Part shown: piece after piece, positions 1-40,468 of the stretch
Layout of the letters: each line of letters begins with the position of its first letter
How positions within the stretch are numbered: the first letter of the stretch is position 1
Program-made: the position numbers and the translations under genes
Notes under the pieces: generated by a model
Database searches by the model: none
The model's input: the letters and a program-made list of their open reading frames with translations, nothing else
What the model was told of the DNA's origin: nothing
Source: Lepidodermella squamata
Taxonomy: Eukaryota > Animalia > Gastrotricha
Length of the DNA: 64,000 bases
Direction: 5' to 3'
Assembly: GCA_047495785.1 (NCBI GenBank)
Contig: JBLDXI010000019.1
Coordinates: 2,976,001 to 3,040,000 of the forward strand

Positions 1-1
1 A

Positions 2-3000
2 GATCGGTAATTTCCATTTATTTCCATGAAAATTTATTGCAATCTGTTAATAATAATATTATTAATTTGAAGAGATCACGTTCGAGTTGAATGCCACCAC
101 GAAGCCCTGCACACCCCATTCTTAACCTCTTATATTGAAGTAAAGGAATTATCCGGAGCTCTGATTCTAAACCAGGCCAACTCGGTTTTACAATCTAGGC
201 TGTGCGCAACAATGGAAGGGGGTAATTAATTAATTTAAAAAATCAGAAAATTCAAATAAAATAATTATTACTATTTTTAATATTAAAAAGGTTGGACGTT
301 TTCTGTCTTCAGAATCAAGACTAGTGCATTGGAAGAAGACGAACTAGCCCTAGGGGCTGGTCAGCCGAAGAAAAAGCGACGTTTAGAGCAGACATTGGTC
401 GATTTTATACTGTCTCACAGATCGGTTCTGTTCATAGACAATGACGATCGCTTGTGCCTATTCAGAGCCATTGTTCACGCTCTAGCTTACCGTGATTTTA
501 ATGAGCCGAGGGCTGGTCATGAACGTCACGGAAATTTCGAACTATTGCGTCCCTATTATTCGAAAGATCGCGATGCATTAACACCATTGGCAATCCAAGA
601 GCGAGCAGTAGCATTCGAATACGAAGGGCAATTGGCTAAGCAGCTGATGGAGACTGCTGGTATTGATGGAAATAAAGATCGCTATGGCATCACGGATTTT
701 AAAAAAGCTGTTGAAACAATAGGGCTACCGTATCGTGGTAAATTCTGGTACCTGAATACTATTTCGACCCCTTACTAATTCTAAGAATTTAATTTTCTCA
801 GGGATTATTTACAACTTCAAAACGAAACAGGTTGTCGCAATTCATCCTCCGGCAACTGTTGAAATAGCTGACGAGCGAAAAATTTACATTGGTTTTATCA
901 GTAGTCAAACTATTGCTTCACATGTCGAAGGAGGCGTAGGGTCGTTCGAAAGTGTCGGACACTACGTCGGCCTAACTGGTATTTCTAACATATCAGGCGG
1001 AAAAATCATGTGCCCATACTGCTTCATGCTCCATAAGAAAAATTCCGTAGCGCATAAATGCAGTCGAAAGTGCAATAGGTGCCAAACCGTTGGGGCAGAT
1101 TGTAAAAGCAGTCGAGAGCGGGACATAATATGTCGTGGCTCTTGCGGACTATATTACCATGGAAAGCAGTGCTATGAAGCTCATGTCAAGGTGAACCCAA
1201 CTACTGGAAAATCAATCTGCGATTCTTTCTTCATGTGCAGCAAATGTGGAAGAACGTTGCCGGCGAAAGCTCGAAAAAAGCACAAATGTACGTGGTTGCG
1301 CAATTCGAAGCATGCTCAGGGAAATTTAATCTTTTAGGTGAAATTCGAAACTGCCGTGTCTGTAAAGGTGATTTGCCTCCACGCGACGAGTCTGCACCGC
1401 ACGAGTGCGTTATTCAACCTGGTAGGATTGGGAAAGTAAAGCCGAGGTTGCTTGCGTTGTTTGATTTCGAGACAATTCGAGGCAACGATGGCACCCTGAT
1501 ACCTGTAGTTGTTTGTCTCAATTTCTTTTGCGAATCTTGCAAATTCCTACCGAGCTCTGACAAATGTCCCGCAAATTGTACTAATGATGATCCACGCACT
1601 CACTCATTTGTCTCTGACGGAAGTGACAATTCTTGCGTTAACAAGCTAATGCGGTACATTCTTCAGGAGCAGTTCAGAGGTCTCTTCCTGTTGTCTCACA
1701 ATGGAGCTCGGTAATTTTAATTTCGAAAAACACTTTAGTTTTGAGATTTATTTCCCTACTATTACTATAACAAGCTTCGATCACATGTTCATCATGGCTT
1801 GGCTGCAGAGACATGAATACCAATTTGAAACTATCCACCACAACAATAGTGTCATGGAGATCAAAGTTGAAGGCAGCATTGTATTTCGCGACTTTTACTT
1901 GCTAACAATGACGAGTTTGGCAGCGCTTTTCAAAGCATTTGACCTACAAAATGAAGACATTACTGGGAAGCAATTTTTTCCCTACAACCTGTTGACGCCC
2001 GAAAACTGGTTGAAAGACGTAATCAACACCCCAACACTGAATGACTATGACACGTCAAAAATGTCATCTGCGAAAATCGATGAATTGAAACTACATATCG
2101 CACGGAATTCTTCATCTAATTTCAGCCTGAAATCGGAAACTGTTGCGTACTGTCATAGCGATGTCGTATTGCTACAGCAATGTGTAGTCAAATTCCGTGA
2201 GCTGATCCGTGAAATAACAACCATACCGGGGTCTTGTGACGACGGTATCGACCCTATCGCAGGTAAACCTAATAAAAAGTCCCTTTTGAATGAACCTCCA
2301 CCTTAAAAATTTCTGCTTTTGAAGAGTCGCGAACTCTTGCTTCACTATCAAATTTGATTTGGAGAACTCTTTATCTGGATAAAAATCTGCCTATACACCT
2401 GGTACCAAATACAGGTTATTCCGCGGGGTACATTTTTATTATTTTTACTTTTGATGAACATGATGGGAATTCTGTAAACCTCTCAGACCGAATTATTCCC
2501 GCGAATCGGTGATTTGGTTCGAATTTTTATCACGAAAAAGTAACAAGCGGATTCTGCATGCTGGAAATTCGAATGGCGAGGTCACCATCAAGTTGCCAGA
2601 AACTTCAAAATTCTATCGATTCAAACCAGACGGGGTTGTTCTGGATGAAAATGGTCACATTCGCGAAGTATTTCAATATCATTGGCACGGTTGTTTGCGA
2701 TGCTATCCTGACTGCACGAATAAGCTACACCCGGTCCGGAATGTCACCTTTGGTGAGTTGTATCGTGAGACACTGGCGAAAGATCAGGCGGTAATTGACG
2801 CCGGCTATCAGCTAACTGTCACATGGGGATGCGAAGCCAAGCGAATCATGGCTGAAGACGCTGTTTTAGCAGGCGAAATCGAGCGAACACTCACTATTGT
2901 TGACAGAGCTATGCCACGGCAATTTTACACAGGTGGACGCACCGAGGTATAATAATAATAATAACTTTTATGCAAGACCACCAAGTAACAGTCATAATGA

Positions 3001-4875
3001 CTGTTCACAGGTTTTCAGGCTACATTACGAGACATTACCAGGGGAGAAGATAAGGTATTTGGATGTGAATAGTCTGTACCCGGCTGTGCTGAGCTCGAAG
3101 CTTGGATCGGTGCAAGACGGATACGAGGAAGTATTTTTTCCTTACGGCAAGCCATGCCCGAAGGTTTTGGCAATGCGAAACAATGACATTGATCTGCGAG
3201 CACACTTCTTTTCGAAAGAAGATCCAAGCTTTGGACTTACTAGTTGCCTCGTACGAATCAAGCGTGATGTCTACCTGCCAATTCTAGGGTATAGAACGTC
3301 CAGAGGCTGCCTGAAATTCGGATCTTGCCGTTCATGTATGGAACTGGGAGCTCAAGTCGCATGTGTACACAATGACGAAGAACGATGCTTTCATGCTTAC
3401 GTGACAACTTCAGAATTGAGGCTCGCGCTCGATTATGGTCAATGCGAAATCGTCCGCTTCTATGGTACTAAATTTTCCTAATTTAATTGTATCTTCCCTA
3501 TGATATATCGTGGGCATCTCTTCATAGAGACATACCACTACCCGAAGAAATCCAACATGATATTTCGTTCGTTCATTTACGCTGGGCTCAAAGTGAGTAA
3601 TCAGTAGCTTATTTAGCCTTTTGTTTGAACTACCTGTTCACTCTAAAGATCAAGCTCGAATCCAGCGGCTATGATGGGCCTGACATTGATGACTACATTG
3701 AGACGTGCTCAAAACTGTACGGGTTTAAGATGGATAAAGACAAGCTGAAGAACCCCAATTCAGCACTGAGATCCCTTGGGAAATTGCTGTTAAACACTGG
3801 TTGGAATTGTTTAGTTGGCTAATAATTCTGATAACCTTCCATCTCTCTCTCTTTTTATTTTAGCTTATGGAAAACTGGGTCTTAGACCTGATGGAATTCA
3901 AGTTTCATATGTCGACACACCATCAGAGTTGTTGAGACTACTTCGAAGACCTGGCATGAAAATTCATGACATTGCCGTATTGCCTCCGAGTGAAGACTTC
4001 GAAGATGATGGTGATGGGATGCTAACCAAAGAACGGTTACGCATCACTCATTCAACTGAATTGGAAGAGTTCCAACCCTCGTTACCTGTGTCTAACATTG
4101 TTCTAGCAGCCATGGTTACTTCTGCTGCTAGAATTTACCTCTTCAAACAGCTCCATCGGCTCCAGGCAACCTTGTTGTATACTGATACTGGTGAGAATTC
4201 CGAAACAAAGTGCCCTAAATTCAACCATGAGTCGATCTTTCATTCATGTTTTAGACTCTTGCATTTACGTGGAAAAGCCGGGATCAGCCGTGCCACTGCA
4301 CACAGGCGACTGTCTGGGTAAATATATTGAACCGTTCAGAATAAAAAAGAAAAAAAATCGGAATGAATATTCTTAAACTATTATAGGTAACTGGAAAGAT
4401 GAGATCGGATCGGGAGATTACATCACAAAGTAAGGAATGAATATAACGAATTCAAAATCCAAAGTTAAATGTACCTTTCTCAGATTTATTGGTTTGGCAC
4501 CGAAGACGTATCTGATACAACAATCTAACGGAGTAAGCTCTCCTGAACTTCTGACTAAACGAACAATTCTTAATCTAATTATTGTACTAGCAAACTACAA
4601 TTCGAATGAAAGGCTTCCAGCTGAAACCTGCCCTCGAGAGGCAAGTCAACTACGACAGTTTCATGCGACTTCTTCACTCTATCAATGCTGACAAGAACGC
4701 AGACGAGGCTTGTTTGAAGTTGGAACAGCAGGTTTGGCGCCGATTTCAGTGCCATCCCTATGCAAAGGTTGCAATTCAAGATGTGATAAAAACACTCCGA
4801 TTCAAGTTTATGAAACGCTTCATTTCAGATTATGAAACATTCGAAACTGTACCCTTTGGTTATATTAAGGGCTAA
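2..4875 (+). CDS. Protein-primed family B DNA polymerase (pPolB), 5'-partial, 15 introns, ~1315 aa visible
   Basis: GT-AG introns 7-72, 222-290, 738-801, 1288-1337, 1711-1774, 2263-2324, 2428-2486, 2947-3010, 3465-3527, 3593-3648, 3800-3863, 4191-4254, 4318-4386, 4430-4483, 4533-4590. Spliced length 3948 nt is a multiple of 3 with no internal stop. Motifs: ExoI FDFET, ExoII HNGARFD, ExoIII YCHSDV, GGRTEVF, motif A DVNSLYP, motif B KLLLNTAYGKLG, motif C YTDTDS, APKTY, KGF, C-terminal VPFGY. Confidence 0.93.
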
Positions 4876-4892
4876 CGGACTGAATTGTGAGC

Positions 4893-6054
4893 ATGGCGAT
4901 GTACAATAATAATAATAATATCGCCATGCTTTCTGACGAGGACTATGTAACTCTTGATGAGCTTTTACATCCATTATATTATACTGCTAACTTGCCCAGT
5001 TCATTTCGATCTATTAAAATTCTGTACGAAGCTGCAAAGGCCAGGTATCCAAATAATCGGGTCATTACCTATAAAACAGTTCGAGAATGGCTATCGGCTC
5101 AACCGGCTTATAGCCTTTTCCGGCAAGCTTCTACGCGCAATCGTAAGCTTTATAGGCGAGTTGCGGTACATGCTAAGGGTTCCACCTTTGCTGGGGACCT
5201 AATGGAAATTACGAAGGAATATCAATTTTTCAACGCGAGAAAGAAGTACGTCCTATGCATAAAGGACCTTTTTACCCGCAAAACTTGGTTGAGGGTGTTG
5301 AAAAATAAAACAGCTGCTATAGTGCTTGGTGCGATTAAAGGTATCATGTCCGAAATCGACTTGATCCCTAATCAGGTAATTACTGACAAAGGTAAGAGAA
5401 AACATCTGTCTGCCGCAGTGTCTTAATCTCCATTTAAAATCTCTGATCTAATTAGGATCCGAGTTTCGCGATAAGAAAGTTCAAAAGTACTTTTCTGATC
5501 TCGGCGCCAGGTTTTACCTCACTAATTCTCCCAAGAAGGTGGGTGCAATCGAGACATTTATCAAGAACCTTCGAATGCGATTGGTTCGATATATGATGGC
5601 TAATAACACTAAAAATTTCATCGATAAACTTGACGACATTTTGGATGCAATCAATAGCTGCCCAAATTCAACAACCGGCTTTAGCCCTGATGAGTTATGG
5701 AACCTTAACCCTGAATTGAATGTGGCGCTTTCGCAACCCGGTTTCATGACTGTTTATGAGGATCACCCAGACAATTTAGTCGCTCATCGAAACGCTTTCA
5801 AGACGATTCGCCAAATACGAGTGAAATTCAATTTGGGAGATCGCGTTCGGATCTTGCAACAGCGGAAAATTTTCAAAAACCGAATTAAACACCCGACTTT
5901 TAGCGACAGAATCTACCATGTGACTGAAATTCTTCCTCAAAATGATCACTCGACGGTGGCTTACCGCGTATCATCTGACCCCAACGATAAATCCGGGCAA
6001 CTGAAGCGTGTTTTCTACACGCATGAGCTCCAGAAGTTATATAAAGAGAAGTGA
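4893..6054 (+). CDS. Retroviral-like (rve) DDE integrase, 1 intron (5392-5455), ~365 aa
   Basis: Spliced product reads ...AGDLME...IKDLFTRKTW...ITDK/GSEF...KVGAIETFIKNLR...; D,D,E triad intact; C-terminal FNLGDRVRI...VFYTHELQK. Confidence 0.92.
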
Positions 6055-6069
6055 TTTCGCACGCACCTT

Positions 6070-6342
6070 ATGGTAATGTCATCCATTTCAAATCCCGAAC
6101 TTGCGTCAACTGATCGTCGATCTCAGCAACTTCGACCTTTTCTCCTTGCAACGAGAACCGCAACTGCTTTTCAACCACCGAGTTTATCAAGCGTACCTAG
6201 ATCCTCTTCATCATTAGCATCGCGATCAAAGCAAGTACTCGCCCTGGCTCTTACTCTGGTTTTACTGCTTTTGACCTTGGTTGTCCACCATCTACTATAT
6301 CCAACCGTACCTACTCTACCTAATAATGCTGTCAGTCAATAG
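6070..6342 (+). CDS. Small Ser-rich protein with one hydrophobic (putative TM) helix, within the Maverick
   Basis: 90-aa ATG ORF preceded by TATATAAA (~6038-6045); hydrophobic stretch VLALALTLVLLLLTLVV. Confidence 0.5.
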   Translation: MVMSSISNPELASTDRRSQQLRPFLLATRTATAFQPPSLSSVPRSSSSLASRSKQVLALALTLVLLLLTLVVHHLLYPTVPTLPNNAVSQ

Positions 6343-7511
6343 CTACTACGGCAAGGACTTGATTCTAGTTCTACCATCTCATGCGTCATCAGATTTGTAT
6401 CCTCAAAATACTGCTGCAGAGTTCAAAGTCAAGCTTCCACATATTATTGGTAAGTTGAATAAACTCGTATCGTCTTGCATCTTGTTACGCCTTCCGATAA
6501 TAGATTTAGGGAGCGTTGGCTCTCATGAAGCTGCCCTCCTCGAGGTTTGCACTCCATCGCAGGTTGTTTCGCTGAAAAAGTCCACTTTTTTCGTTTTCAA
6601 AACCTCTTGGTTGGACCGTGGCACTCTTGAGGAATCACCTTACAACAACCCTTTGGAGTTTGCCGAGTGCCATGTGGGTGGTCGCATCTACGAGACAATG
6701 ACAGATTACATCAATGACTTGCTCTCTGCTATGCCTGAATGGGCTGAAATCAACATGGCCTATGAGGAAGGCAAAGATCGCATTCGCTTTGACCTAAAAC
6801 CCGGCTTCGGGTTGTACCTTCCCGAATTTACGGGGCAGATTCTTGGTTTTGGAAAGGCTGTCGTTTTAATTAACGTCCCTCCAGATGAAGAGTCTAGTGG
6901 GGATGAAGATTGGCAGCAGAGACATGAACGGGAATATTTGAGCCTCTTCAGTCATTTATTGCGATTTATACTGGCCGGAAAAGATGGCAAAAAGTTGGTA
7001 ATGGCAAATGGGAAAAAACCTACATATCAGACCGACGAAGATGGTAAATTAACCCTGAATCTTTATCAGAGGAGTTTGGCAGATGAGGTCTCATTGGCCG
7101 CTGAGGTTGCTTATCGATCCACGCGCAAAGATCAGCCGCTCTACTCTGAATTCATTCCGCAAATTCATTTCCACACTCCGCTGATTTATTGCTACACGGA
7201 CCTCATTGAGCCGGTTATTTGCGGTGATAAAAGTGTCCCTTTGCTGCGAGTTTTTCCCGCGTCTTCTGGCGCATCCAACAAGCAAAAGTACAACCTGATC
7301 AGTTTTGCTGGCTCAACACCGTACTATCACCCAATCAAGTCGCAATTTTTGGACACCCTGAGCTTCATGATGTGCCTCGATTCAGGTATCTGTGATTTTC
7401 TTCTTCATCGTCAGCTGTGATTTTTACGAATTGATGATTTTAGGAGAGAAATTAGTATTTAAACAAGGGAAAAGTATGCTGACAATCCACATACGTCCCA
7501 TTCGCCATTAA
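6326..7511 (+). CDS. Minor capsid (penton-like) protein, 2 introns (6450-6503, 7386-7443), ~357 aa
   Basis: N-terminal LVLPSHASSDLYPQNTAAEFKVKLPHIIDL...HEAALLEV and C-terminal IYCYTDLIEPVICGDKSVPLLR...DSGEKLVFKQGKSMLTIHIRP match the Maverick minor capsid pattern. Confidence 0.88.
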
Positions 7512-7513
7512 AA

Positions 7514-8035
7514 ATGCGACAACCTATTAGCTCCGATTCATACCTGCACTGGTTTCAGCAACAACAGACTGGTCGTGGGATTTCTTCTTCAATCCAACCA
7601 TTCACTGGACCCTCTATTGTTTTGATGCCACAAGTCGGTAATGGCTTGGGTAAGAACGGCGATTAGTTTTCATCAACATTCTTAGGAATTTCTCGTGTGT
7701 TGTTTTTTTTCTTTTCAAAAAAAATATTAGGTACTTGGCTCCGAGGTTGGGTACGAAATAGCCTGATTCCATTTCTACCCAGGCTCTTGAACACTGCTGC
7801 TACAGCGGCATCCAACATAGCTTCAGATATCTCCACGCGTCAACAGAGTGGCGCAGATCTCAATGTAGCTGAGGTTTTTAAAAACCGAGGATTGGAAGGT
7901 CTCAAGTCTGTTGGCAAAGAAGCTGTTAATCATTTAGCTTCTCAGTATGGATCTGGAAAGCGCAAACGCAAAGGGAAACCAAAAAAGCGTGCAGTTTTGT
8001 TCAAGCAGCCAAAATCGGATCGCATTTTGTTCTAA
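7514..8035 (+). CDS. Conserved Maverick QxGxG-motif basic protein (probable virion core protein/protease substrate), 1 intron (7650-7730), ~146 aa
   Basis: QTGRG...QVGNGL/GTWLRGWVRNSLIPFL (amphipathic)...QYGSGKRKRKGKPKKR; lies between the minor and major capsid genes. Confidence 0.8.
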
Positions 8036-8111
8036 TTAAGTGTGTGTATATAAAGGATCTTCAGAAATTGAATAAATTGTAATCGCCCAAGTGCTTTACG
8101 TTTTTACAATC

Positions 8112-9461
8112 ATGTCTGACCATGCTATTAGAGCCGAATTAGCTGTTTTTGCCTCACCTGCATTCACAAATGAAATCACAGGAACGCACGTAACTGAATG
8201 CTTTCCAACAACATCGATAAGTGGAGCCCAGCAGATAACATTTGTTATCCCTGCTTCTGAAGCCTTCACAGACCTCAGTCACACCTATTTATCAATCAAG
8301 GCTACGCTAACACCGACGAATGATGACATCACAACAGAGACATTTTGCTGCGCGGGCGTAAATAACCTGTTGAACTCCTTATTCGAGGACTGTCACATTT
8401 ATCTCAACGAATGCTTAATCACGCAGAATTCTTCGCTCCATAGCTACCAGGCATATATGGAAAACTTCTTATCGGCAACACAAGATATCCAGTCTACAAA
8501 GCTCACCAACGTTGGTTGGTACCCTGATACCCCCGGGTTGTTCAACAATCTGAAGGAAAATGCAGGGTTCAAATCTCGTCGTGCGCTGGTGAAGAATTTC
8601 GAACAAAAACCCGTCATCTCTTTGCTGGGGAAAATTTCGACCGATTTCTTCAATCAGGAACGATATTTGATCCCACAAACAAGCGTGCGAATTAAGCTGA
8701 CTCTACACAAGCCAGAGTTTTTCCTTATGTCTGATAATCTGGCAAATTACGAGTTCAAACTTCTGGAGGCGGTCTTGCTAGTAAAACGAGTTGAGGTTGT
8801 TCCCGAGGTCACCATTGCACTTGAAAAGGCGCTATTGGAAGCACCGGCTCGTTACAGTTTCACTCATACGGTGACTAAGCCATTCAATTTGCCTACTAAT
8901 ATGACGGCCATTTTCCTCAACAACGTTGTATTAGGAGTGATTCCCGAAAAGATTGTATTAGGTAAAAAGAAAAAACCCATTTTTTTTCAGACCATTCCAA
9001 TATAACTTGTTTTACCATTGCAAGCCATGGTCGAGGATGAAGGTATTCAGGGTTCAGCTGCCACCAACCCTTTCAGGTTTCAACATTTCGGTCTTCAGAA
9101 TATAACAATTACCATCGATGGAAAGGCTGTTGGTGGCACACCTCTTGCAATGGATTTCGAAGCTAACGATTGTGCCCGAGTTTACCAACTCATGCAAGAT
9201 ACCATATTTCCGACTTCGAATTCAAAGTGTGTCAACATAAGTCGGGATGATTTCGTCAAAGGTGGTGGCTTTGTCATGGCATTCGACTTGAGTCAGGATT
9301 CGGATCCTAATGGACGTTTGACGCAGACAGGACAGATGGCGATCAACCTTCTCTTCAGCAAGAAACTGACTTCTCCAACGACTTTGATTGCCGTAATGTA
9401 TTATAAAAACAAGACGCTAGAAATTCAGGCCAACAGAACAGTCCTGCATAATTTCTTCTAA
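8112..9461 (+). CDS. Major capsid protein (double jelly-roll), 1 intron (8962-9024), ~428 aa
   Basis: AELAVF...ITFVIP...DLSHTYL...NNLLNSLFED...DFFNQERYLIP...IPEKIVL/AMV...NPFRFQHF...AFDLS, the Polinton MCP pattern; TATATAAA upstream at ~8047. Confidence 0.92.
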
Positions 9462-9467
9462 GAAAAC

Positions 9468-9959
9468 ATGAACACCCTGGAACTGAATGCTTTGCTCCAT
9501 TCCGACCCTATTATCAATCAAGGTGTTTACGCTACAATTCCGTGCGATATGCTTCATTATTACGAAAACTATGATATGCATACTAAGCCTCTTTACCTAA
9601 TCGTGAATGCCTCTCCAAGCTCGACAGCAGGCACTCATTGGATAGCCATACATGTAACGGAAACATCAATTACCTTCATGGACTCTTATGGTCAGGATTC
9701 GGGATCTTGGTCGGTTCGTCTGGACCATTTCATCGGTAACATGGCGAATTGTGGCAGGAAGCTCGTATCATTCAATCACCGCGGCCTTCAACCGTTTGAC
9801 AGTGCCTACTGTGGTTTGTATTGCCTGGTATTCCTACATCAGTCAGCTCGCGGTGTTTCCCTACCTAATATTCTTTCGTTAATCACTAATCATGGCTGGA
9901 ATACGAGAGCCGAAAATGACGCTTTTGTTGCACGCTTTGTTAAGGACAACTTTGCATAG
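9468..9959 (+). CDS. Adenain-like (clan CE) maturation cysteine protease, original copy
   Basis: GTHW (His), FMDSYG (Asp), LQ...CGLYC (Gln, Cys); intronless, 163 aa. Confidence 0.92.
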   Translation: MNTLELNALLHSDPIINQGVYATIPCDMLHYYENYDMHTKPLYLIVNASPSSTAGTHWIAIHVTETSITFMDSYGQDSGSWSVRLDHFIGNMANCGRKLVSFNHRGLQPFDSAYCGLYCLVFLHQSARGVSLPNILSLITNHGWNTRAENDAFVARFVKDNFA

Positions 9960-9982
9960 TATATAAAAAGAGCTGCTTGTAA

Positions 9983-10832
9983 ATGTTACCTACCATACAT
10001 AATATTAATAAATCCATAACGGAAGATTATATGACGATGACTTCGTTTACCACAGCTTTCCAGGCACCTTGTACTATAATCATTTCTGGCCCTAGTCAGG
10101 GTGGAAAATCAACACTAATCAAAGATATTTTGCTGTACCCTGGCTCATTCGATAGACCTATCGATAGGGTAGTTTGGTTTCGAGGTATTGCTCAACCAGG
10201 TCATGTCGAACTCAGTCAACAAGTTCGGGCAGTGCGTGGAATTCCGATCGAATATCGGGATGACATAACAACCTTTCACGAGGCTGATTACCTGGGACCT
10301 GGGCATAAGCTGCTGGTATTCGATGATAATTACTGCGATGCCAAGGATATGAAGCAAGTTGCAGAACTGTTTTACCGCGGTTCGCATCACAGCCAAATTT
10401 CAGTAATAATGGCGCAAAATAATTTATTTCCTCGGTTTGTTTACTGCTATATGAATAATATATTATAACCATGATTTTTAGAGGAAAGTTTTCCCGAGAT
10501 GTCACCTTGAATGCGAGATACATTATTGTTTTTCGCTCACCTTGTGACATGACTCAGTTCGGACACCTGGCTCGTCGAATTTTACCCAAAGACTGGAGAT
10601 TCTTGCAAGGTTAACAATTTAAATTTCATTTGAATATTACCGCTTCACATCATTAAAATATATAGAGAGCTTTGACATTGCTACGAGCGCGCCTTTTGGT
10701 TATCTTTTAATAGATAACACATCATCTTGCCCGCCGTTACTCCGTTTTCGAAACTTTATCGGATCTCGAACTGGCAACGTTTTTGTAAAGGTGGAAGACG
10801 TTCCCAGCTTGAACCTACCACTGACTATATAA
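9983..10832 (+). CDS. A32/FtsK-like genome packaging ATPase, copy 1, introns 10435-10481 and 10610-10665
   Basis: Walker A GPSQGGKST, Walker B LLVFDD, GSHH, QNNLFPR/GKFSRDVTLNARYII, PFGYLLID. The true start may be ATG 10031, given the TATA box at ~9960. Confidence 0.9.
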
Positions 10833-11032
10833 AAAGGACTCTGTGTTACAGTAGGAATAAACACATCAAACTCTTGATTATGTTCGGTTTATTGTGTTAC
10901 TACTACTACGAATACTACTACTACTACTACAGTATATGTTAAGCATACGTAGATTAAGTAAGCGATATATAGTATATATAGTATTGTCCAGTGTCAGTTT
11001 AGTCCATTGAGCCGAGAACGAATTCTCTCTCT

Positions 11033-11476
11033 CTACTCGTTCAGGTTCGAGAGCATGTAGTAGATCATGTGCTGCAGTTCCATGAAGACTGCATCTGAGG
11101 CACAAAAACCATCTTGCGAGAATTCCTGCGAATTTTCTTGTCCAATGATGATATTACCCGCAGCAGGCAGGAAAAGGCGGACATCGACATATGTGCGGGG
11201 TGACCCGTTCGGACGAAATACCTTGGCGTGAAACATTCCTCCGATGTGATGTTTCGGTCCATTGCACATCATCTTCCCTCTCGGTAGTTTCAGCTCCTGC
11301 TTGATCTTGTCAACCCATGAGCCTTCGATCTGCATGCTTTCATAAATCATTCGCAGCTCTCGAGCTGAGAGATACAAACCCTTGCGTGTATAGTAGAGTT
11401 TGTTCACTTCGATTGCATGACCAATGAAAAACTCAAGATCTGGAACGTGATCATCATGATTTCGACGCAAGATCAT
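11033..11476 (-). CDS. N-terminally truncated copy of the PC4-like gene, created by the duplication
   Basis: Identical to the C-terminal 147 aa of 14951-15604; lacks the native N-terminus and promoter. Confidence 0.45.
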   Translation of the reverse strand: MILRRNHDDHVPDLEFFIGHAIEVNKLYYTRKGLYLSARELRMIYESMQIEGSWVDKIKQELKLPRGKMMCNGPKHHIGGMFHAKVFRPNGSPRTYVDVRLFLPAAGNIIIGQENSQEFSQDGFCASDAVFMELQHMIYYMLSNLNE

Positions 11477-11921
11477 GAAGGTGGGCTCTTACGCTACAAT
11501 TCCGTGCGATATGCTTCATTATTACGAAAACTATGATATGCATACTAAGCCTCTTTACCTAATCGTGAATGCCTCTCCAAGCTCGACAGCAGGCACTCAT
11601 TGGATAGCCATACATGTAACGGAAACATCAATTACCTTCATGGACTCTTATGGTCAGGATTCGGGATCTTGGTCGGTTCGTCTGGACCATTTCATCGGTA
11701 ACATGGCGAATTGTGGCAGGAAGCTCGTATCATTCAATCACCGCGGCCTTCAACCGTTTGACAGTGCCTACTGTGGTTTGTATTGCCTGGTATTCCTACA
11801 TCAGTCAGCTCGCGGTGTTTCCCTACCTAATATTCTTTCGTTAATCACTAATCATGGCTGGAATACGAGAGCCGAAAATGACGCTTTTGTTGCACGCTTT
11901 GTTAAGGACAACTTTGCATAG
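11475..11921 (+). CDS. Protease copy 2 with a junction-derived N-terminus (MKVGS)
   Basis: In-frame ATG upstream of the junction; all catalytic residues retained. Confidence 0.55.
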   Translation: MKVGSYATIPCDMLHYYENYDMHTKPLYLIVNASPSSTAGTHWIAIHVTETSITFMDSYGQDSGSWSVRLDHFIGNMANCGRKLVSFNHRGLQPFDSAYCGLYCLVFLHQSARGVSLPNILSLITNHGWNTRAENDAFVARFVKDNFA

Positions 11922-11944
11922 TATATAAAAAGAGCTGCTTGTAA

Positions 11945-12794
11945 ATGTTACCTACCATACATAATATTAATAAATCCATAACGGAAGATTATATGACGAT
12001 GACTTCGTTTACCACAGCTTTCCAGGCACCTTGTACTATAATCATTTCTGGCCCTAGTCAGGGTGGAAAATCAACACTAATCAAAGATATTTTGCTGTAC
12101 CCTGGCTCATTCGATAGACCTATCGATAGGGTAGTTTGGTTTCGAGGTATTGCTCAACCAGGTCATGTCGAACTCAGTCAACAAGTTCGGGCAGTGCGTG
12201 GAATTCCGATCGAATATCGGGATGACATAACAACCTTTCACGAGGCTGATTACCTGGGACCTGGGCATAAGCTGCTGGTATTCGATGATAATTACTGCGA
12301 TGCCAAGGATATGAAGCAAGTTGCAGAACTGTTTTACCGCGGTTCGCATCACAGCCAAATTTCAGTAATAATGGCGCAAAATAATTTATTTCCTCGGTTT
12401 GTTTACTGCTATATGAATAATATATTATAACCATGATTTTTAGAGGAAAGTTTTCCCGAGATGTCACCTTGAATGCGAGATACATTATTGTTTTTCGCTC
12501 ACCTTGTGACATGACTCAGTTCGGACACCTGGCTCGTCGAATTTTACCCAAAGACTGGAGATTCTTGCAAGGTTAACAATTTAAATTTCATTTGAATATT
12601 ACCGCTTCACATCATTAAAATATATAGAGAGCTTTGACATTGCTACGAGCGCGCCTTTTGGTTATCTTTTAATAGATAACACATCATCTTGCCCGCCGTT
12701 ACTCCGTTTTCGAAACTTTATCGGATCTCGAACTGGCAACGTTTTTGTAAAGGTGGAAGACGTTCCCAGCTTGAACCTACCACTGACTATATAA
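11945..12794 (+). CDS. Packaging ATPase copy 2 (complete, 2 introns)
   Basis: Identical to copy 1 at +1962, with its own TATA box. Confidence 0.85.
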
Positions 12795-12988
12795 AAAGGA
12801 CTCTGTGTTACAGTAGGAATAAACACATCAAACTCTTGATTATGTTCGGTTTATTGTGTTACTACTACTACGAATACTACTACTACTACTACAGTATATG
12901 TTAAGCATACGTAGATTAAGTAAGCGATTATATATAGTATTGTCCAGTGTCAGTTTAGTCCATTGAGCCGAGAACGAATTCTCTCTCT

Positions 12989-13432
12989 CTACTCGTTCAG
13001 GTTCGAGAGCATGTAGTAGATCATGTGCTGCAGTTCCATGAAGACTGCATCTGAGGCACAAAAACCATCTTGCGAGAATTCCTGCGAATTTTCTTGTCCA
13101 ATGATGATATTACCCGCAGCAGGCAGGAAAAGGCGGACATCGACATATGTGCGGGGTGACCCGTTCGGACGAAATACCTTGGCGTGAAACATTCCTCCGA
13201 TGTGATGTTTCGGTCCATTGCACATCATCTTCCCTCTCGGTAGTTTCAGCTCCTGCTTGATCTTGTCAACCCATGAGCCTTCGATCTGCATGCTTTCATA
13301 AATCATTCGCAGCTCTCGAGCTGAGAGATACAAACCCTTGCGTGTATAGTAGAGTTTGTTCACTTCGATTGCATGACCAATGAAAAACTCAAGATCTGGA
13401 ACGTGATCATCATGATTTCGACGCAAGATCAT
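12989..13432 (-). CDS. N-terminally truncated PC4-like copy
   Basis: Identical to 11033-11476. Confidence 0.45.
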   Translation of the reverse strand: MILRRNHDDHVPDLEFFIGHAIEVNKLYYTRKGLYLSARELRMIYESMQIEGSWVDKIKQELKLPRGKMMCNGPKHHIGGMFHAKVFRPNGSPRTYVDVRLFLPAAGNIIIGQENSQEFSQDGFCASDAVFMELQHMIYYMLSNLNE

Positions 13433-13877
13433 GAAGGTGGGCTCTTACGCTACAATTCCGTGCGATATGCTTCATTATTACGAAAACTATGATATGCATA
13501 CTAAGCCTCTTTACCTAATCGTGAATGCCTCTCCAAGCTCGACAGCAGGCACTCATTGGATAGCCATACATGTAACGGAAACATCAATTACCTTCATGGA
13601 CTCTTATGGTCAGGATTCGGGATCTTGGTCGGTTCGTCTGGACCATTTCATCGGTAACATGGCGAATTGTGGCAGGAAGCTCGTATCATTCAATCACCGC
13701 GGCCTTCAACCGTTTGACAGTGCCTACTGTGGTTTGTATTGCCTGGTATTCCTACATCAGTCAGCTCGCGGTGTTTCCCTACCTAATATTCTTTCGTTAA
13801 TCACTAATCATGGCTGGAATACGAGAGCCGAAAATGACGCTTTTGTTGCACGCTTTGTTAAGGACAACTTTGCATAG
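13431..13877 (+). CDS. Protease copy 3 with a junction-derived N-terminus
   Basis: Identical to 11475-11921. Confidence 0.55.
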   Translation: MKVGSYATIPCDMLHYYENYDMHTKPLYLIVNASPSSTAGTHWIAIHVTETSITFMDSYGQDSGSWSVRLDHFIGNMANCGRKLVSFNHRGLQPFDSAYCGLYCLVFLHQSARGVSLPNILSLITNHGWNTRAENDAFVARFVKDNFA

Positions 13878-13900
13878 TATATAAAAAGAGCTGCTTGTAA

Positions 13901-14750
13901 ATGTTACCTACCATACATAATATTAATAAATCCATAACGGAAGATTATATGACGATGACTTCGTTTACCACAGCTTTCCAGGCACCTTGTACTATAATCA
14001 TTTCTGGCCCTAGTCAGGGTGGAAAATCAACACTAATCAAAGATATTTTGCTGTACCCTGGCTCATTCGATAGACCTATCGATAGGGTAGTTTGGTTTCG
14101 AGGTATTGCTCAACCAGGTCATGTCGAACTCAGTCAACAAGTTCGGGCAGTGCGTGGAATTCCGATCGAATATCGGGATGACATAACAACCTTTCACGAG
14201 GCTGATTACCTGGGACCTGGGCATAAGCTGCTGGTATTCGATGATAATTACTGCGATGCCAAGGATATGAAGCAAGTTGCAGAACTGTTTTACCGCGGTT
14301 CGCATCACAGCCAAATTTCAGTAATAATGGCGCAAAATAATTTATTTCCTCGGTTTGTTTACTGCTATATGAATAATATATTATAACCATGATTTTTAGA
14401 GGAAAGTTTTCCCGAGATGTCACCTTGAATGCGAGATACATTATTGTTTTTCGCTCACCTTGTGACATGACTCAGTTCGGACACCTGGCTCGTCGAATTT
14501 TACCCAAAGACTGGAGATTCTTGCAAGGTTAACAATTTAAATTTCATTTGAATATTACCGCTTCACATCATTAAAATATATAGAGAGCTTTGACATTGCT
14601 ACGAGCGCGCCTTTTGGTTATCTTTTAATAGATAACACATCATCTTGCCCGCCGTTACTCCGTTTTCGAAACTTTATCGGATCTCGAACTGGCAACGTTT
14701 TTGTAAAGGTGGAAGACGTTCCCAGCTTGAACCTACCACTGACTATATAA
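13901..14750 (+). CDS. Packaging ATPase copy 3 (complete, 2 introns)
   Basis: Identical to copy 1 at +3918. Confidence 0.85.
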
Positions 14751-14950
14751 AAAGGACTCTGTGTTACAGTAGGAATAAACACATCAAACTCTTGATTATG
14801 TTCGGTTTATTGTGTTACTACTACTACGAATACTACTACTACTACTACAGTATATGTTAAGCATACGTAGATTAAGTAAGCGATATATAGTATATATAGT
14901 ATTGTCCAGTGTCAGTTTAGTCCATTGAGCCGAGAACGAATTCTCTCTCT

Positions 14951-15604
14951 CTACTCGTTCAGGTTCGAGAGCATGTAGTAGATCATGTGCTGCAGTTCCA
15001 TGAAGACTGCATCTGAGGCACAAAAACCATCTTGCGAGAATTCCTGCGAATTTTCTTGTCCAATGATGATATTACCCGCAGCAGGCAGGAAAAGGCGGAC
15101 ATCGACATATGTGCGGGGTGACCCGTTCGGACGAAATACCTTGGCGTGAAACATTCCTCCGATGTGATGTTTCGGTCCATTGCACATCATCTTCCCTCTC
15201 GGTAGTTTCAGCTCCTGCTTGATCTTGTCAACCCATGAGCCTTCGATCTGCATGCTTTCATAAATCATTCGCAGCTCTCGAGCTGAGAGATACAAACCCT
15301 TGCGTGTATAGTAGAGTTTGTTCACTTCGATTGCATGACCAATGAAAAACTCAAGATCTGGAACGTGATCATCATGATTTCGACGCAAGATCATGAAGGT
15401 GGGCTCTTTACAGCTTGTTATCGACTGCCTGGCCAAAGTGTAGTGTACTCGTTGAAATCGACTGAGGTCATTCCAACCAGGAATCAAACCGCTTCGATTT
15501 GAGCCGGCAGCAGCAGCAGCAGCATGACCACGTGGAGGTAGCAATGGACCATCGATTGTTGGCGATGAGGGGGTATCCATGGTGGTGGTGGTGGTAGTTT
15601 CCAT
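14951..15604 (-). CDS. Protein with two putative PC4/Sub1-like ssDNA-binding domains (full-length copy)
   Basis: YTRKGLYLSARELRMI and TYVDVRLF...SQDGFCASDAVFMEL resemble the PC4 motifs YVDIRE and TKKGISL; TATAAAA on the minus strand at ~15694-15700. Confidence 0.65.
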   Translation of the reverse strand: METTTTTTMDTPSSPTIDGPLLPPRGHAAAAAAGSNRSGLIPGWNDLSRFQRVHYTLARQSITSCKEPTFMILRRNHDDHVPDLEFFIGHAIEVNKLYYTRKGLYLSARELRMIYESMQIEGSWVDKIKQELKLPRGKMMCNGPKHHIGGMFHAKVFRPNGSPRTYVDVRLFLPAAGNIIIGQENSQEFSQDGFCASDAVFMELQHMIYYMLSNLNE

Positions 15605-15787
15605 CAAATAAAAGAAGTTATCTCAGGATATATACTACCAAAATGTAAAGCAAGCGTTAGTTATGACTATTTCCACCCTTCTCCGCAGGCAACCTTTTAT
15701 ACAGGTCGGACCGTTAGTTGTCATATAGGTATTGTTTGATTAAGTATATTAACCGTTTCTAGTGACAGTTTGTTAATTAATAATATT

Positions 15788-16171
15788 ATGGCGCCAAAGG
15801 CGCAAACGTCAAAGCGGCAACGAACTCTTGACTTCCTACGGTTGCTTACCCAGGCACCACCTAGCCAGCGGCGACGGTTGCTCGGGTTGGCGCCAACTCG
15901 TATAGTTGTTCTGCTAACCGAAATCTGTCTAAATTTGCTACGTCATAACCTGTCAGCGGACTCGAAGACAGTTAAGAAGCTACGTACATATAAAGCAACT
16001 ATCGAGCGCATTTCCAAGTTTAAATCACCAGACATCAACCGCCAATTGCTAGTTCAAAACGGCAGTGGTGCTTTCATTCCCCTACTTATTTCAGCTGCTA
16101 GTAGCGTTCTACCTTCAGTTATTGACGGTATTTTGGCACTTCGTAAAAGCAGCACTAATCGTGATGTCTGA
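15788..16171 (+). CDS. Conserved Polinton basic protein with an adenovirus pX-like C-terminus ('GasderminX'-type)
   Basis: LRLLTQAPPSQRRRLL...LTEICLNLLRHNL...KKLRTYK...LVQNGSGAFIPLLISAASSVLP resembles the Q-x-G-G-F-L-P-L-L/pX signature. Confidence 0.75.
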   Translation: MAPKAQTSKRQRTLDFLRLLTQAPPSQRRRLLGLAPTRIVVLLTEICLNLLRHNLSADSKTVKKLRTYKATIERISKFKSPDINRQLLVQNGSGAFIPLLISAASSVLPSVIDGILALRKSSTNRDV

Positions 16172-17120
16172 GAAGCATAGTCGCAAGTTGGTCCTCATGC
16201 AAGACTTGGCGGCAGATGGTAATGGAAATGTGACGACGACGACGACGCCAGTTACTACGCGCGCGGAAGGTGTTTGTGATAAAGATGCACTACAACGAAG
16301 AGCAATGACGAGGCAGCGTTTGTTTGATGGGCCCGCCTATTCCAAGGTGGAAGATTTGGAAAATCAAATGACTGATATACTACAGCAACCAAATGTTAAC
16401 TCGCAGAGTGCACGAGAGTACAACTACCTGTTCGGGGAACTTGAACGGCTCAAGCAAAACTTTCGACTGTTCCAAAATACCAGAGTTAACAACCAGACTG
16501 ATCAAGCACCTACGAAAGAGTCACCTCGACCTCCTGCTCCCACACCTGTTACTGGCACTACGCCTACCGCGGCGGCTGCTGCTGCTGCTTCTGATCCGGT
16601 AGCCGGTGGTAGTGATACTGCTGTAGCAGGCACGGTTACTAATGGGGACGCTACAACCAATTACCTCAATGCTCGCTTTGGCAGTTTAAAGTCTGATCAA
16701 CTTGAAAAAGCATCCTCTATTTTGAATCATCTGCGTTCGAATTTGTCACCTGATGCTACCTTCACATTGGATGGATCATCGTCCTCCTCAACAATCACTT
16801 TTATTCGGGATGACAGTACCTTGGCTGAGATCCCGGTCGATACTCTGGTTGAAGTCTTAACAAAAGCTCCAAGCAAATTATCAGTCTCCGCAAAGCAGCT
16901 GTTTCAACCAGTTGCGGAACTCTTGTCAAAGACCTCTGCACCCATGCATCTATTCGCAAAGTCGAGCATTGGTAAATCGGTCACGGCGATGACTAATGCT
17001 CGCTATCAAAATCCGACGCGTCCGCCGCGCCAACGGTCTATGTCGTCGTCATCGTTCCTTCGAGACATTGTTACACCTGATATTGCAACCATGTTTCCGT
17101 GGGAACACGTGGGAACATGA
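16164..17120 (+). CDS. Conserved Polinton hypothetical protein (~318 aa)
   Basis: RKLVL N-terminus and LENQMTDILQQP...AREYNYLFGELERL helix, as recalled from Polinton ORFs following the pX-like gene; overlaps the previous stop codon. Confidence 0.65.
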   Translation: MSEKHSRKLVLMQDLAADGNGNVTTTTTPVTTRAEGVCDKDALQRRAMTRQRLFDGPAYSKVEDLENQMTDILQQPNVNSQSAREYNYLFGELERLKQNFRLFQNTRVNNQTDQAPTKESPRPPAPTPVTGTTPTAAAAAAASDPVAGGSDTAVAGTVTNGDATTNYLNARFGSLKSDQLEKASSILNHLRSNLSPDATFTLDGSSSSSTITFIRDDSTLAEIPVDTLVEVLTKAPSKLSVSAKQLFQPVAELLSKTSAPMHLFAKSSIGKSVTAMTNARYQNPTRPPRQRSMSSSSFLRDIVTPDIATMFPWEHVGT

Positions 17121-17142
17121 TAAAAGATTGTGGTTGCTGCTG

Positions 17143-17178
<36 letters not shown>

Positions 17179-17271
17179 TTACTACTACTATCGTAATAAA
17201 ATTTGCAATAAAACACGACCTGCAGGGGTGTCTCAATCGTTCATTCTTTCATTCATTCATTCATTCATTCA
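17143..17271 (+). repeat. Microsatellites (TAC)n 17143-17190 and (TTCA)n 17240-17271
   Basis: Seen directly. Confidence 0.9.
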
Positions 17272-17329
17272 TACAACTGCATTTACCAAACCTGCCGCAG
17301 TCACATGATCATGGGAACATTTTTCAACA

Positions 17330-17543
17330 AACAACCTTGATATTTATTATTCAATTTTCATTTTCGCGCCAAAAATTACCAACGACCTTGACATTTATTT
17401 TCAAATTTTCATTTTCGCGCCAAAAATTACAAACGACCTTGACATTTATTTTCAAATTTTTCATTTTCGCGCCAAAAATTACAAACGACCTTGACATTTA
17501 TTTTCAAATTTTCGCGCCAAAACTTTCTCAAACGACCTTGACA
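17330..17543 (+). repeat. Subterminal ~51-nt tandem repeats (~4.3 copies) in the presumed right TIR
   Basis: Unit AACGACCTTGACATTTATTTTCAAATTTTCATTTTCGCGCCAAAAATTAC. Confidence 0.9.
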
Positions 17544-17623
17544 TAATCATTATGATTCATTTCTCCGACCGTGGGAAAATATTTGAATTTTTGACCGTTG
17601 CTGGAGACCCCCCCCTTACTACT

Positions 17624-17686
17624 CAATTGATAGATAAAATTGGGTAGCCTCACCATAACGCCTAGGAATAATGCAAGCTTTACCAT
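17624..17686 (-). CDS. Exon 1 (17686-17654, MVKLALFLGVM) and 30 nt of intron of a 4-Cys secreted peptide gene, interrupted by the Maverick
   Basis: Homologous to exon 1 and the GTGAGG intron of the copies at 18.7, 21.35 and 25.49 kb; homology stops exactly at the Maverick terminus. Confidence 0.85.
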
Positions 17687-29048: not shown

Positions 29049-30681
29049 TCATGCGCAGTTACAATCAGGATTCGGAATAAAAGTTTTGCCTGGTTCGCAT
29101 CTGTTCCAAACGTGGAAAGTGCCATAGAAGTCGTAGTACAGCGTCGGATCTTCTGTCTTGTAATATCGCGTAACCGCGTTGCCAAAACGATTTTTCGTAG
29201 CACATGACAGAGTCAAGCCGGGTATCGTAACTCGAGTACAAGCTCCGCATTTAGTGCTAGGGCTATATCCCCAACCAGCCGCATCAGAGCAGACACCAGT
29301 GGCGTAGCAACCAACCGGCTTCTCGATAATCACAACATATCCGCGGTACAGCGACGGGTAGTTTGACGCACCCGAGGCTAAACAAGGCGCTGCCAAGTTA
29401 GTGTCCAGCGGTGCGAATCCTAACTCGCCAGCCGCTTCGTTGCATGAACAAGCGCATTTATCCATCGAAAAGCTGGTCGAACACGTGAATTTCGTCGAGG
29501 CGTAGTAACAGCCACGACTATCAGCCACGTAGTAGGAATTGCCATCGGATGATGCGATTCGCTTCTCGTTATTGCGCTGCTTCAAAACGCACTCGCCTCG
29601 GGTCGCGTCCGAAGGAGGTGAAGGGCAGTTGCAAGGGCAGCGAGTTGGCGGATCGTTCTGGGTGCAGGTTCCAACTTTCTCCTCAGAGCAGACGCAGCCA
29701 CAAGCACTTTGCGAGTATACATACCCAGAATCGCAAGTGATGTAAGAAGGCGGGGAGTTCTTGTATTCGTCAAAGCAGCCCAACGCATCGGCGACGTAGT
29801 AACTTTTGGTGAAAGATCCGAGGCGAGTCTCGCCGGACGACGTAGTACAAGGGCTGAAGCCGTCTGTGCCTTGTAGGCGTTTCGTGCTGCAAACGCAATC
29901 GCAGACATCAACGCTGGAACTAAATTCCTTAATTCCGGGGCACGATACCGATTTCGTGAGGCCGAAACAGCCGTTTGAATCTGCAACGTAATAACTGTCG
30001 AATTCGCCGGCCTGTAAACGGTATTCTGATCCTTTGAAGAGGCAAGGCGTCTTATCGCCAGATACATCTGGCCCAGGTGGGCATTTGCACGAGCATTCGC
30101 CTGGCCCAGGTGCAGGATCTCCAGCTTTGCATTCAATTATCGGGCACACGCATTCGCAATCGCTTTGGCTGAAGACCTTGCCTTTGCCACATTGAACAGG
30201 CGATGTGAGACCGAAACAGCCGTTTCTATCTTCTGGATAGTAGCTATTCCCAGCCCCAAGCCGCTGTGCAGTTTGCCCAGCCGGCATGCAGGTCGGCGAG
30301 TTGTTTGGCCTACTCGGGCATCGACAAGGGCAAGTCGGCCGAGTTTCTGGTTCGAGATGTTCTGCGAGACAAGTAGCGCTGCCCGAGCACTCGCAGTCGC
30401 AGTTTGTCGAGTTGAAAAATCCGTAGAAATCGCACTCTGTAACTGAGCATTGTTCAGTTGTAGTTAGCGTGTAGTATCGGCCTGGCTTTGATTTGCTTGC
30501 GAAGCGATGATTGCCGTTGTAGCGGCACCATTGCTTGAAGTTCGAAGCGTCGTTGAAGTCGCTACCACAGCCGTTAAGCAGCACATCGGTCGCAGTGATC
30601 ACTTCAAAAAATGATTTTTATTTAAATGTGAGCTAATGAGTCAGTAAATTTACCGTGAATAAGGAAGACCAGCCTTATCAT
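29049..30681 (-). CDS. Secreted cysteine-rich repeat protein (~526 aa; intron 30602-30653), peritrophin/chitin-binding-like repeats
   Basis: Exon 1 MIRLVFLIH joins the 517-aa ORF in phase; 4-5 repeats of C..RL(G)..SYY..D..GC(F/Y)..C..G..(F/Y)S..C.C.C separated by CPCxCP linkers. Confidence 0.75.
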
Positions 30682-31163: not shown

Positions 31164-31438
31164 TATGAATTTGTGCGAAACTGAGTTTTCAGGCAGTTTG
31201 CAGCTATTTCCAAGATTTATTTTTTATTTCGAATCAATTTCGCTCAATGTTGTGAAGATTCAAATCTGAACACCGAAATTTGACAGCTCTTCAAACGGTA
31301 CGGCTGGATAATCGCAAATTAAATAATTATTAGCAATATTTGTACATTTTTCGATTTATTTTTCATTAAGACAAATTGCATAAATTGCGAAAATATTTTC
31401 GTTGCATCGCTTCAGTTGTAAATATCCTTCGATTGGAG

Positions 31439-39424: not shown

Positions 39425-40468
39425 CCGTAAATTGGGGCAAAATGGCCGCGGGAAAAAAATGACCCCCTGTTTTTTTCGCATTTTTACACGTTTCAGAGGG
39501 TCCTGATTCCGATTTTATAGGAAGCTCATTTTGCCCCAGGTTTGGGGCAAATTGGACAGGTGTTTTGGGGCTAATTGGCCACCCTTATCCTTATAATGGG
39601 TTTTTAATATTTGATGATTGTGAGGGTTGAATGGTCGAGTGGTTGTGATGCGTCATCAGAACTTGAGTGATCTGATGAGCGACGGTTCGAATCCTCATAA
39701 AGTAGCATTTTTTTTGCTACGCATTTAATTTTTAATTTTTTGGTTTCAATTGTCCATTTTACTAATAATTTTTAATTAGTTTCTCCGTTTTTTCTGATAG
39801 TTTTACTGCTGAGCAACTTTTAAACGCCTCCCGAACAAAAGAAATGCCCGGGATACGTGGTGTTAGTAGAATAATTAAAATGGAAAATTAACAGAAAAAA
39901 TTAAAAAATTAAATGCGTAGCAAAAAAAATGCTACTTTATGAGGATTCGAACCGTCGCCCATCAGATCACTCGCAAGCTCTGATGACGCATCACAACCAC
40001 TCGACCATTCAACCCTCACAATCATCAAATATTAAAAACCCATTATAAGGATAAGGGTGGCCAATTAGCCCCCATCATTGAGTTTTCCATGGGGTAATTT
40101 GGCCACAATCACCTAGCCATACCTGTGCATCGCCTGGGGTCGCGGTTTTTTTTGCTGTCATCTACGACGAAAATGGTCGAAGGAAAAAATTTCATCTGAA
40201 CATCAAACCTCGTGATTGGCTCCTGGTAATTCAATTTAGAGGAGTCGTTTTTACCTCCCCAAACTCACCTTTAAACAACAACATGCTGTGACCTCATTCC
40301 GGGACATACCTGGCTGAAAATTTACAGGCTTGTATAGGGCTTGTTGATAATCGTCCCCGTAAATTTTTGTGAAGTTTTATCTTGTAGTTTTTGAGCTATC
40401 GATAAAAATGTGAAAACCTCTATTTTTGGCCAATTAGCCCCAAAGGTTCATTTTGCCCCAAATGACGG
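39425..40468. mobile_element. Non-autonomous pogo/Tc1-type element with an internal long palindrome
   Basis: TA|CCGTAAATTGGGGCAAAATG ... CATTTTGCCCCAAATGACGG|TA; internal arms ~39567-39740 and ~39894-40072. Confidence 0.8.

Follow-up and report, generated by a model that had tools for sequence, protein, structure and literature searches.

The stretch of DNA analysed here, called the window throughout, covers 64,000 nucleotides (nt) of contig JBLDXI010000019.1 from the gastrotrich Lepidodermella squamata. Positions 1-17,623 (forward strand) hold the right-hand part of a Maverick/Polinton element, the left end of which lies beyond the window. The element closes with ACTACT at 17618-17623, which we take to be the terminal motif of Mavericks/Polintons, and a host repeat starts at 17625. 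Its genes follow in the order polymerase, integrase, small open reading frame (ORF), putative minor capsid, small basic protein, double jelly-roll (DJR) capsid, C5 protease and ATPase; a minus-strand ORF and then two more ORFs separate the ATPase from the ACTACT end.

2..4875, forward: protein-primed DNA polymerase B, 5'-incomplete; 16 exons, at least 1315 codons
4926..6054, forward: retroviral-type integrase, one intron; Pfam rve E 0.0013, below the cut-off
6326..7511, forward: putative minor capsid, two introns; named by position and motifs
7514..8035, forward: small basic protein with a GxG motif, one intron; weak match to loci L002/L011, E 0.01
8112..9461, forward: double jelly-roll major capsid, one intron; Atlas feature score 0.94-0.98 to DJR/capsid clusters
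9468..9959, forward: adenovirus-type cysteine protease, intronless; Pfam Peptidase_C5 22.2 bits, cut-off 21.3
10031..10832, forward: packaging ATPase, two introns; Walker A/B; E 0.0013 to an ORF of locus L015
14951..15622, reverse: 'PC4-like' ORF, longest copy, no intron called; a label only, no family match
15788..16171, forward: ORF that we take to be pX-like, intronless
16164..17120, forward: intronless ORF without assigned function

The polymerase matches its Pfam family (PF03175, E 3.8e-17) and two homolog hidden Markov models (E 2e-251 and 2e-224). It carries the Exo I-III and Pol A-C motifs of a Maverick/Polinton polymerase and groups among those of animal Polintons, its nearest relative being database protein P0077 (35%). 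The integrase is of retroviral type, with E 4.7e-13 to the integrase of L015. Atlas features identify the double jelly-roll major capsid expected of a Maverick/Polinton; a single-sequence fold prediction (predicted local distance difference test, pLDDT, 31) adds no support to this assignment. Adenovirus-type protease and packaging ATPase are both present. The minor capsid candidate had no match in Pfam and family scans or against the loci compared, and its identity is presumed from its position and motifs; likewise, we assume the small basic protein with its GxG motif to be core-protein-like. The integrase is followed by a 90-codon ORF with a hydrophobic stretch (6073-6342, forward), after which comes the putative minor capsid gene. 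Neither polymerase exon 9 nor capsid exon 1 gave a match in word-index searches, sequence searches of the PDB yielded nothing useful, and viral-contig scans with polymerase exon 6, polymerase exon 9 and protein P0183 returned 1, 0 and 0 loci.

By hand we called 22 GT-AG introns in the element: 15 in the polymerase, one in the integrase, two in the putative minor capsid gene, one each in the genes of the small basic protein and the major capsid, and two in the ATPase. The polymerase count agrees with that of a preliminary description of this DNA; it is a minimum, as the 5' end of the gene lies beyond the window. All introns are on the forward strand.

7-72, 222-290, 738-801, 1288-1337: polymerase introns 1-4, N-terminal part
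1711-1774: polymerase intron 5, phase 2, inside ExoII, splitting the codon after HNGA; AAG acceptor
2263-2324, 2428-2486: polymerase introns 6 and 7, outside the canonical motifs
2947-3010: polymerase intron 8, phase 0, immediately after GGRTE
3465-3527, 3593-3648: polymerase introns 9 and 10
3800-3863: polymerase intron 11, phase 1, in motif B after KLLLNT; non-consensus donor GTTGGA
4191-4254: polymerase intron 12, phase 1, in motif C after YTDT, splitting the second Asp codon
4318-4386, 4430-4483, 4533-4590: polymerase introns 13, 14 and 15
5392-5455: integrase intron, phase 1, after TDK, inside the TDxGxEF motif
6450-6509, 7386-7443: putative minor capsid introns; the first is 3n in length, stop-free and the least certain of all
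7650-7730: small basic protein intron
8962-9024: major capsid intron
10435-10481, 10610-10665: ATPase introns

They measure 47-81 nt (median 63), with a G+C content of 0.09-0.42 against 0.42-0.49 in exons. Phases 0, 1 and 2 are taken by 3, 14 and 5 introns, and an exonic G precedes the donor in 18 of the 22; this preceding G accounts for most of the phase-1 excess (p=0.07). A search for overlooked stop-free introns of 3n length yielded three overlapping low-G+C candidates at two places, none of which was accepted.

Several lines of evidence indicate that these gaps are introns. Each exon, translated alone in the frame set by phase, is free of stops, and all 22 gaps have the traits of U2-type introns: GT-AG ends, A+T richness and removal that keeps the frame. 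The flanks of polymerase introns 4-15 align with homologs that read straight through (95 proteins of at least 500 residues, from 150); introns 1-3 lie in poorly aligned sequence and are called by frame logic and composition. Contigs of run X1 contain the element unspliced, with every intron present in high-depth contigs. Depth there is about 340-540 on the element and 80-100 on host coding stretches, which suggests several element copies, although depth is not a copy number. Between the window and the main X1 contigs (1-10,168), 10 of the 19 listed differences are intronic, while introns make up 1252 of 10168 nt (12%; p=2.6e-5). Four of the five listed length changes are intronic too, among them every one inside genes that is not of coding length, the sole exonic one being in frame, and five of the eight listed exonic substitutions are silent; the list omits one row of indels and any differences where contigs break. 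At the level of sequence, we regard it as established that the introns exist, where they lie and that they diverge faster between copies; all 22 are predicted spliceosomal introns.

The window copy has peculiarities of its own. At 2677, inside a nuclease-like motif within the polymerase, it is 9 nt shorter than the main X1 contig, in frame, and it may be defective. A near-perfect tandem triplication (9527..15400, no strand; units of 1962 and 1956 nt) takes in the whole ATPase together with parts of the protease and of the PC4-like ORF. Long X1 contigs follow the single-copy form of this stretch; X1 gives no cover of the triplication junction, an absence that proves nothing, and the triplication may have arisen in this copy alone or during assembly. 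One further X1 contig (depth about 70) matches only short pieces at 4667, 5569-5624, 8111-8159 and 13726, and is probably a distant second Maverick family of the same genome.

The preliminary description had placed introns inside ExoII, GGRTE, polymerase motifs B and C and the integrase TDK motif. All five junctions indeed coincide with GT-AG introns. Four lie within their motifs, but the fifth stands at the edge of GGRTE, which is not among the six canonical catalytic motifs. For a statistical assessment, two conservation profiles were built from homologs alone (95 and 49 proteins), the window protein was placed on them with X at the junctions, and random sites were drawn, in one null uniformly and in another with phase and flanking bases matched. 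Three of the six canonical motifs (ExoII, B and C) are cut, against 0.35-0.42 expected (p 0.002-0.005), and three of nine when more motifs are counted (p 0.012-0.016); these definitions were fixed post hoc, after the earlier claim had been read. No intron cuts ExoI, ExoIII, motif A or KxY, and 12 of the 15 polymerase introns fall outside the six canonical motifs. Smoothed conservation at the sites gave p<0.05 in 56 of 96 overlapping, non-independent variants, best at ±5 residues. At the exact residue only 1 of 24 variants did so. The lean is thus real but moderate, and concerns conserved blocks rather than catalytic residues as such.

The excess of introns in the polymerase, also claimed earlier, holds up moderately: 15 of 22 fall in 35% of the coding DNA (p=0.0016). 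This longest gene has the highest intron density (3.8 per kb); clustering of its introns towards the 3' end is not significant (p=0.19).

Do other Polinton polymerases break at the same places? Among 259 database polymerases examined for their ends, 87 stop early with a tail of 2-40 residues, amounting to 79 independent breaks. Of these, 19 lie inside motifs, against 6% expected (p ~2e-7); the scoring rules are our own, with some doubt over two or three of the calls. Four lineages less than 50% identical, P0183, P0056, P0151 (Heterodera schachtii) and P0248, break at motif C. All four end in 'DT-G' and a short donor-like tail, with G replacing the second Asp (0.09 expected), which is how a phase-1 intron reads when translated; intron 12 of the window, if retained, reads likewise. 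In the P0183 cluster, 11 of 15 listed members end at motif C, and 85 lineages keep that motif intact. A single clade of the window polymerase, P0183, P0056 and P0248 is rejected (approximately unbiased test, p-AU 4.5e-65, 22 rows; P0151 was left out for low coverage). The motif-C breaks would be apparent repeated intron gains at one codon. Elsewhere, P0138 breaks where intron 8 sits, after GGRTE, and at motif B other lineages break nearby, at different places.

At the DNA level, four of five metagenome loci carry short GT-AG introns in the polymerase, three of them (L019, L020 and L022) probably being one family.

L019: 464-513, 1378-1438; phase 0
L020: 239-286; phase 0
L022: 223-275, 492-540, 1279-1336; phase 0
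L023: about 1866-2003

None of these introns sits at a window intron site. Four sites of L019/L020/L022 and one of L023, whose boundary is less certain, have conservation percentiles of 0.13-1.00; with values so mixed, the introns of these loci are not all in motifs. Two other candidates were rejected: L021 is a frameshifted relic without introns, and the split integrase of L015 is due to a one-base frameshift downstream of an intact, intronless motif rather than to a shared intron. In a further family of polymerases (P0187, P0190, P0205, P0212, P0219, P0222, P0226, P0227, P0230, P0232, P0234 and P0218), every called ORF continues from motif B into sequence resembling an intron, in two cases without meeting a stop. 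P0077 is a single ORF across the sites of introns 6-15; it starts about 30 residues past ExoII, where it may have an intron near intron 5 of the window, or have been cut.

Host genes beyond the element (a cathepsin, a fucosyltransferase, an animal-type K2P channel and an ANF-type receptor) mark the genome as that of an animal and allow a comparison within the window. The 11 host introns called measure 55, 56, 58, 58, 62, 128, 141, 275, 376, 432 and 711 nt, so that five of them (55-62 nt) overlap the element introns in size. Against a profile of 67 viral cathepsins (80 loci), introns of the host papain-family (cathepsin) gene also lean to conserved blocks (mean percentile 0.64-0.73 at ±5/±10, p 0.015-0.17, n=6-7), with no lean at the exact residue for its seven introns.

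31420-33797, reverse: host papain-family (cathepsin) gene, at least seven introns, phases 0/1/2 = 0/5/2

In this gene QKSCASC precedes the catalytic Cys, differing from the residues usual there in the papain family. Acceptors ending in AAG occur in 6 of 22 element introns and in none of the 11 host introns (p=0.067). Together with the poor donor of intron 11, they would fit young introns or inefficient splicing. The 22 introns are also mutually dissimilar: compared among themselves, their best pair scores 25, against 21-34 for shuffles, and within this set they form no introner family.

We now propose, with a probability of roughly 0.65, that the core genes of this element are split by 22 introns of the same size class as the host's, gained singly, likely spliced constitutively and forming no switch. 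The introns would have been acquired individually over the long period that the lineage spent in host nuclei; their splicing is assumed to be routine. Polymerase, integrase, capsid and ATPase would then all rely on the host spliceosome. For the lean towards catalytic motifs we infer two causes. Because conserved codons would offer all lineages one and the same G-ending insertion context, separate gains could coincide, as at motif C. In addition, only exact removal could rid an invariant motif of its intron, whereas an intron in a loop could erode. In Daphnia, introns are often gained in parallel at a single site, according to the accessible part of PMC4202315; the exact-removal argument is made, in the portion of PMC2814812 available, for inteins and group I introns.

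Several observations weigh against this proposal. The lean persists when random sites are matched for phase and both flanking bases, so insertion context alone is an insufficient explanation, and retention of introns at conserved codons is a presumed second step. The same accessible portion of PMC2814812 reports that spliceosomal introns had no preference for conserved sites in the proteins tested. The database breaks are known as protein tails alone, and 'uninterrupted' homologs may include spliced models or transcripts. The AAG acceptors leave room for inefficient or regulated splicing. Finally, the host control is a single gene.

The motifs could instead be hot spots, cut by nucleases of competing or co-resident elements, where repair or homing adds an intron, which from then on protects the site; the short introns would be either scars or what is left of homing spliceosomal introns. 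The recurrence of in-motif breaks in other lineages, at several different sites in motifs A and B, speaks for this view. A preference for conserved sites marks homing elements (PMC2814812, in part), and mirusviruses have spliceosomal homing introns, one family of them at a fixed site (PMC12768974, as far as its accessible text goes). However, no intron here exceeds 81 nt or is coding, the introns are mutually unrelated, junction repeats span only 0-5 nt, family scans found no free-standing endonuclease in the part of the element within the window, and the host gene leans likewise. We consider such hot spots unlikely. A bolder conjecture in the same direction is that many members of the group are intron-bearing Polintons that have stayed hidden, in which unrelated lineages repeatedly gain introns at the same nuclease-targeted catalytic codons, the motif-C Asp above all, as homing relics or protective scars of conflict between elements and a spliceosomal counterpart of the inteins in polymerase motifs; long odds stand against it as well, if a touch shorter ones.

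Introns could also be kept as a shield against silencing of intronless foreign RNA by a HUSH-like system, or for export, which would account for their number and not for their position. Introns do protect against HUSH in human cells, according to the accessible part of PMC8770142, and the longest gene here is the densest in introns. Several genes are nevertheless intronless and a HUSH-like system in this host is only hypothetical, which leaves shielding rather improbable, slightly below the hot spots.

Less probable again is the on/off switch that the preliminary description had read into the introns within motifs: regulated retention of at least one intron would limit polymerase or integrase to a tissue or stage, like IVS3 of the P element. 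Part of its ground is firm. If retained, 21 of the 22 introns (all except 6450-6509) would end the protein by a frameshift or a stop, the polymerase is intron-enriched, and there are weak sites, namely the GTTGGA donor of intron 11 and the six AAG acceptors. The inference itself does not follow. A retained stop or frameshift removes everything downstream, and for a retention switch it makes no difference whether the intron sits in a motif; 12 introns stand ahead of motif C or within it, and 14 ahead of KxY. The stop pattern is that of chance, because A+T-rich 60-mers end proteins in any case: one of the eight introns of 3n length is stop-free, against 1.17 expected from shuffles. Nor is the distribution among genes telling. 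No intron was called in the protease, the PC4-like ORF or the ORF at 15788, as described, but that account left out the intron-bearing capsids, ATPase and small basic protein; structural genes thus carry introns too. The three genes are short, and the probability that all of them lack introns is 0.05 if the mean density is assumed and 0.24 if that of the non-polymerase genes is. The host cathepsin gene, moreover, shows a similar lean and phase bias. By itself, the switch idea adds little.

That the introns are ancient and shared, with a motif-C intron in an early animal Polinton lost from most lineages, we hold to be still more doubtful. The same codon and a compatible phase in five lineages would be explained. 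But the carriers are scattered among the 85 lineages with an intact motif C, the nearest relative, P0077, reads through the sites of introns 6-15, only 2 of 15 window sites are matched among the breaks examined, and other lineages use nearby, different sites at motif B. Lastly, insertions in a decayed copy that merely resemble introns, as the triplication and the 9-nt in-frame length difference might hint, are a negligible prospect, given GT-AG ends and a kept frame in 22 of 22 cases, the presence of all of them in high-depth X1 contigs and the concentration of differences in introns.

Some other features of the window deserve mention. Just inside the right end of the element, after TAC and TCAT microsatellites, four tandem 51-nt repeats stand at 17327-17513. 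In host DNA, long inverted repeat pairs at 22453-22630/37508-37683 and 39567-40072 (94-99%) are probably host non-autonomous transposons. X1 depth is high around 22-28 kb. An intronless, cysteine-rich ORF of 522 codons (29049-30617, reverse) has no Pfam match.

The lasting value of these results lies in an intron-rich form of elements otherwise regarded as intronless and in the apparent recurrence of intron gain at a single catalytic codon. Surveys of Mavericks and endogenous DNA viruses rely on ORF callers or treat interrupted genes as decayed, so that intron-rich elements would be missed or filed as dead or broken. Introns would tie every stage of the element's cycle to the host nucleus. With the ancestral genes taken as intronless, such elements would document intron gain cleanly: the 22 events of this one element, and apparent repeated gains at one codon in unrelated lineages, make the question of where new introns land directly testable.

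Among known systems, the element is closest in content to animal Mavericks/Polintons (PF03175 pPolB; adintovirus-like), with which it shares polymerase, rve integrase, DJR capsid, C5 protease, ATPase, the ACTACT end and multiple copies in an animal genome. It departs from them in its 22 introns spread over six core genes; intronless core ORFs are a descriptive, not a defining, trait of the group. In the accessible parts of the sources, vertebrate Mavericks (PMC8097293) and nematode Maverick core genes (10.1101/2022.07.12.499685) are intronless, and a large protist survey assumes intronless Polinton genes (PMC10120064). The literature covered, which did not extend to subscription papers, Repbase or supplements, held no account of an animal Maverick with spliceosomal introns in core genes.

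The following comparisons draw on the accessible portion of each paper. Like the Drosophila P element (PMC7776569), the element has a DNA transposon enzyme dependent on host splicing. There, one regulated intron with an exonic silencer stands beside two constitutive ones, and its retention yields a repressor; nothing comparable to regulated intron, silencer or repressor product is visible in the sequence here. Inteins and group I introns (PMC2814812) also occupy conserved motifs of replication proteins, but they are self-splicing and often nuclease-bearing, unlike the spliceosomal-type introns of 47-81 nt in this element. Intron-rich mirusviruses (PMC12768974) are likewise nuclear DNA viruses whose core genes hold many short GT-AG introns, some of which keep a fixed site in different lineages. 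They differ in phylum and capsid type and are enriched for introns in virion genes rather than in the polymerase; spliceosomal homing introns (shintrons) contain an endonuclease gene, while the longest intron here is 81 nt and none encodes a protein. The nearest published precedent is the insertion of introners into dinoflagellate Maverick/Polinton-like proviruses (PMC11957031): there too, spliceosomal introns or intron-making elements lie inside Polinton-like elements, although they form repeated transposon families of mutually similar introns, whereas the 22 introns described here are mutually unrelated and their host is an animal.

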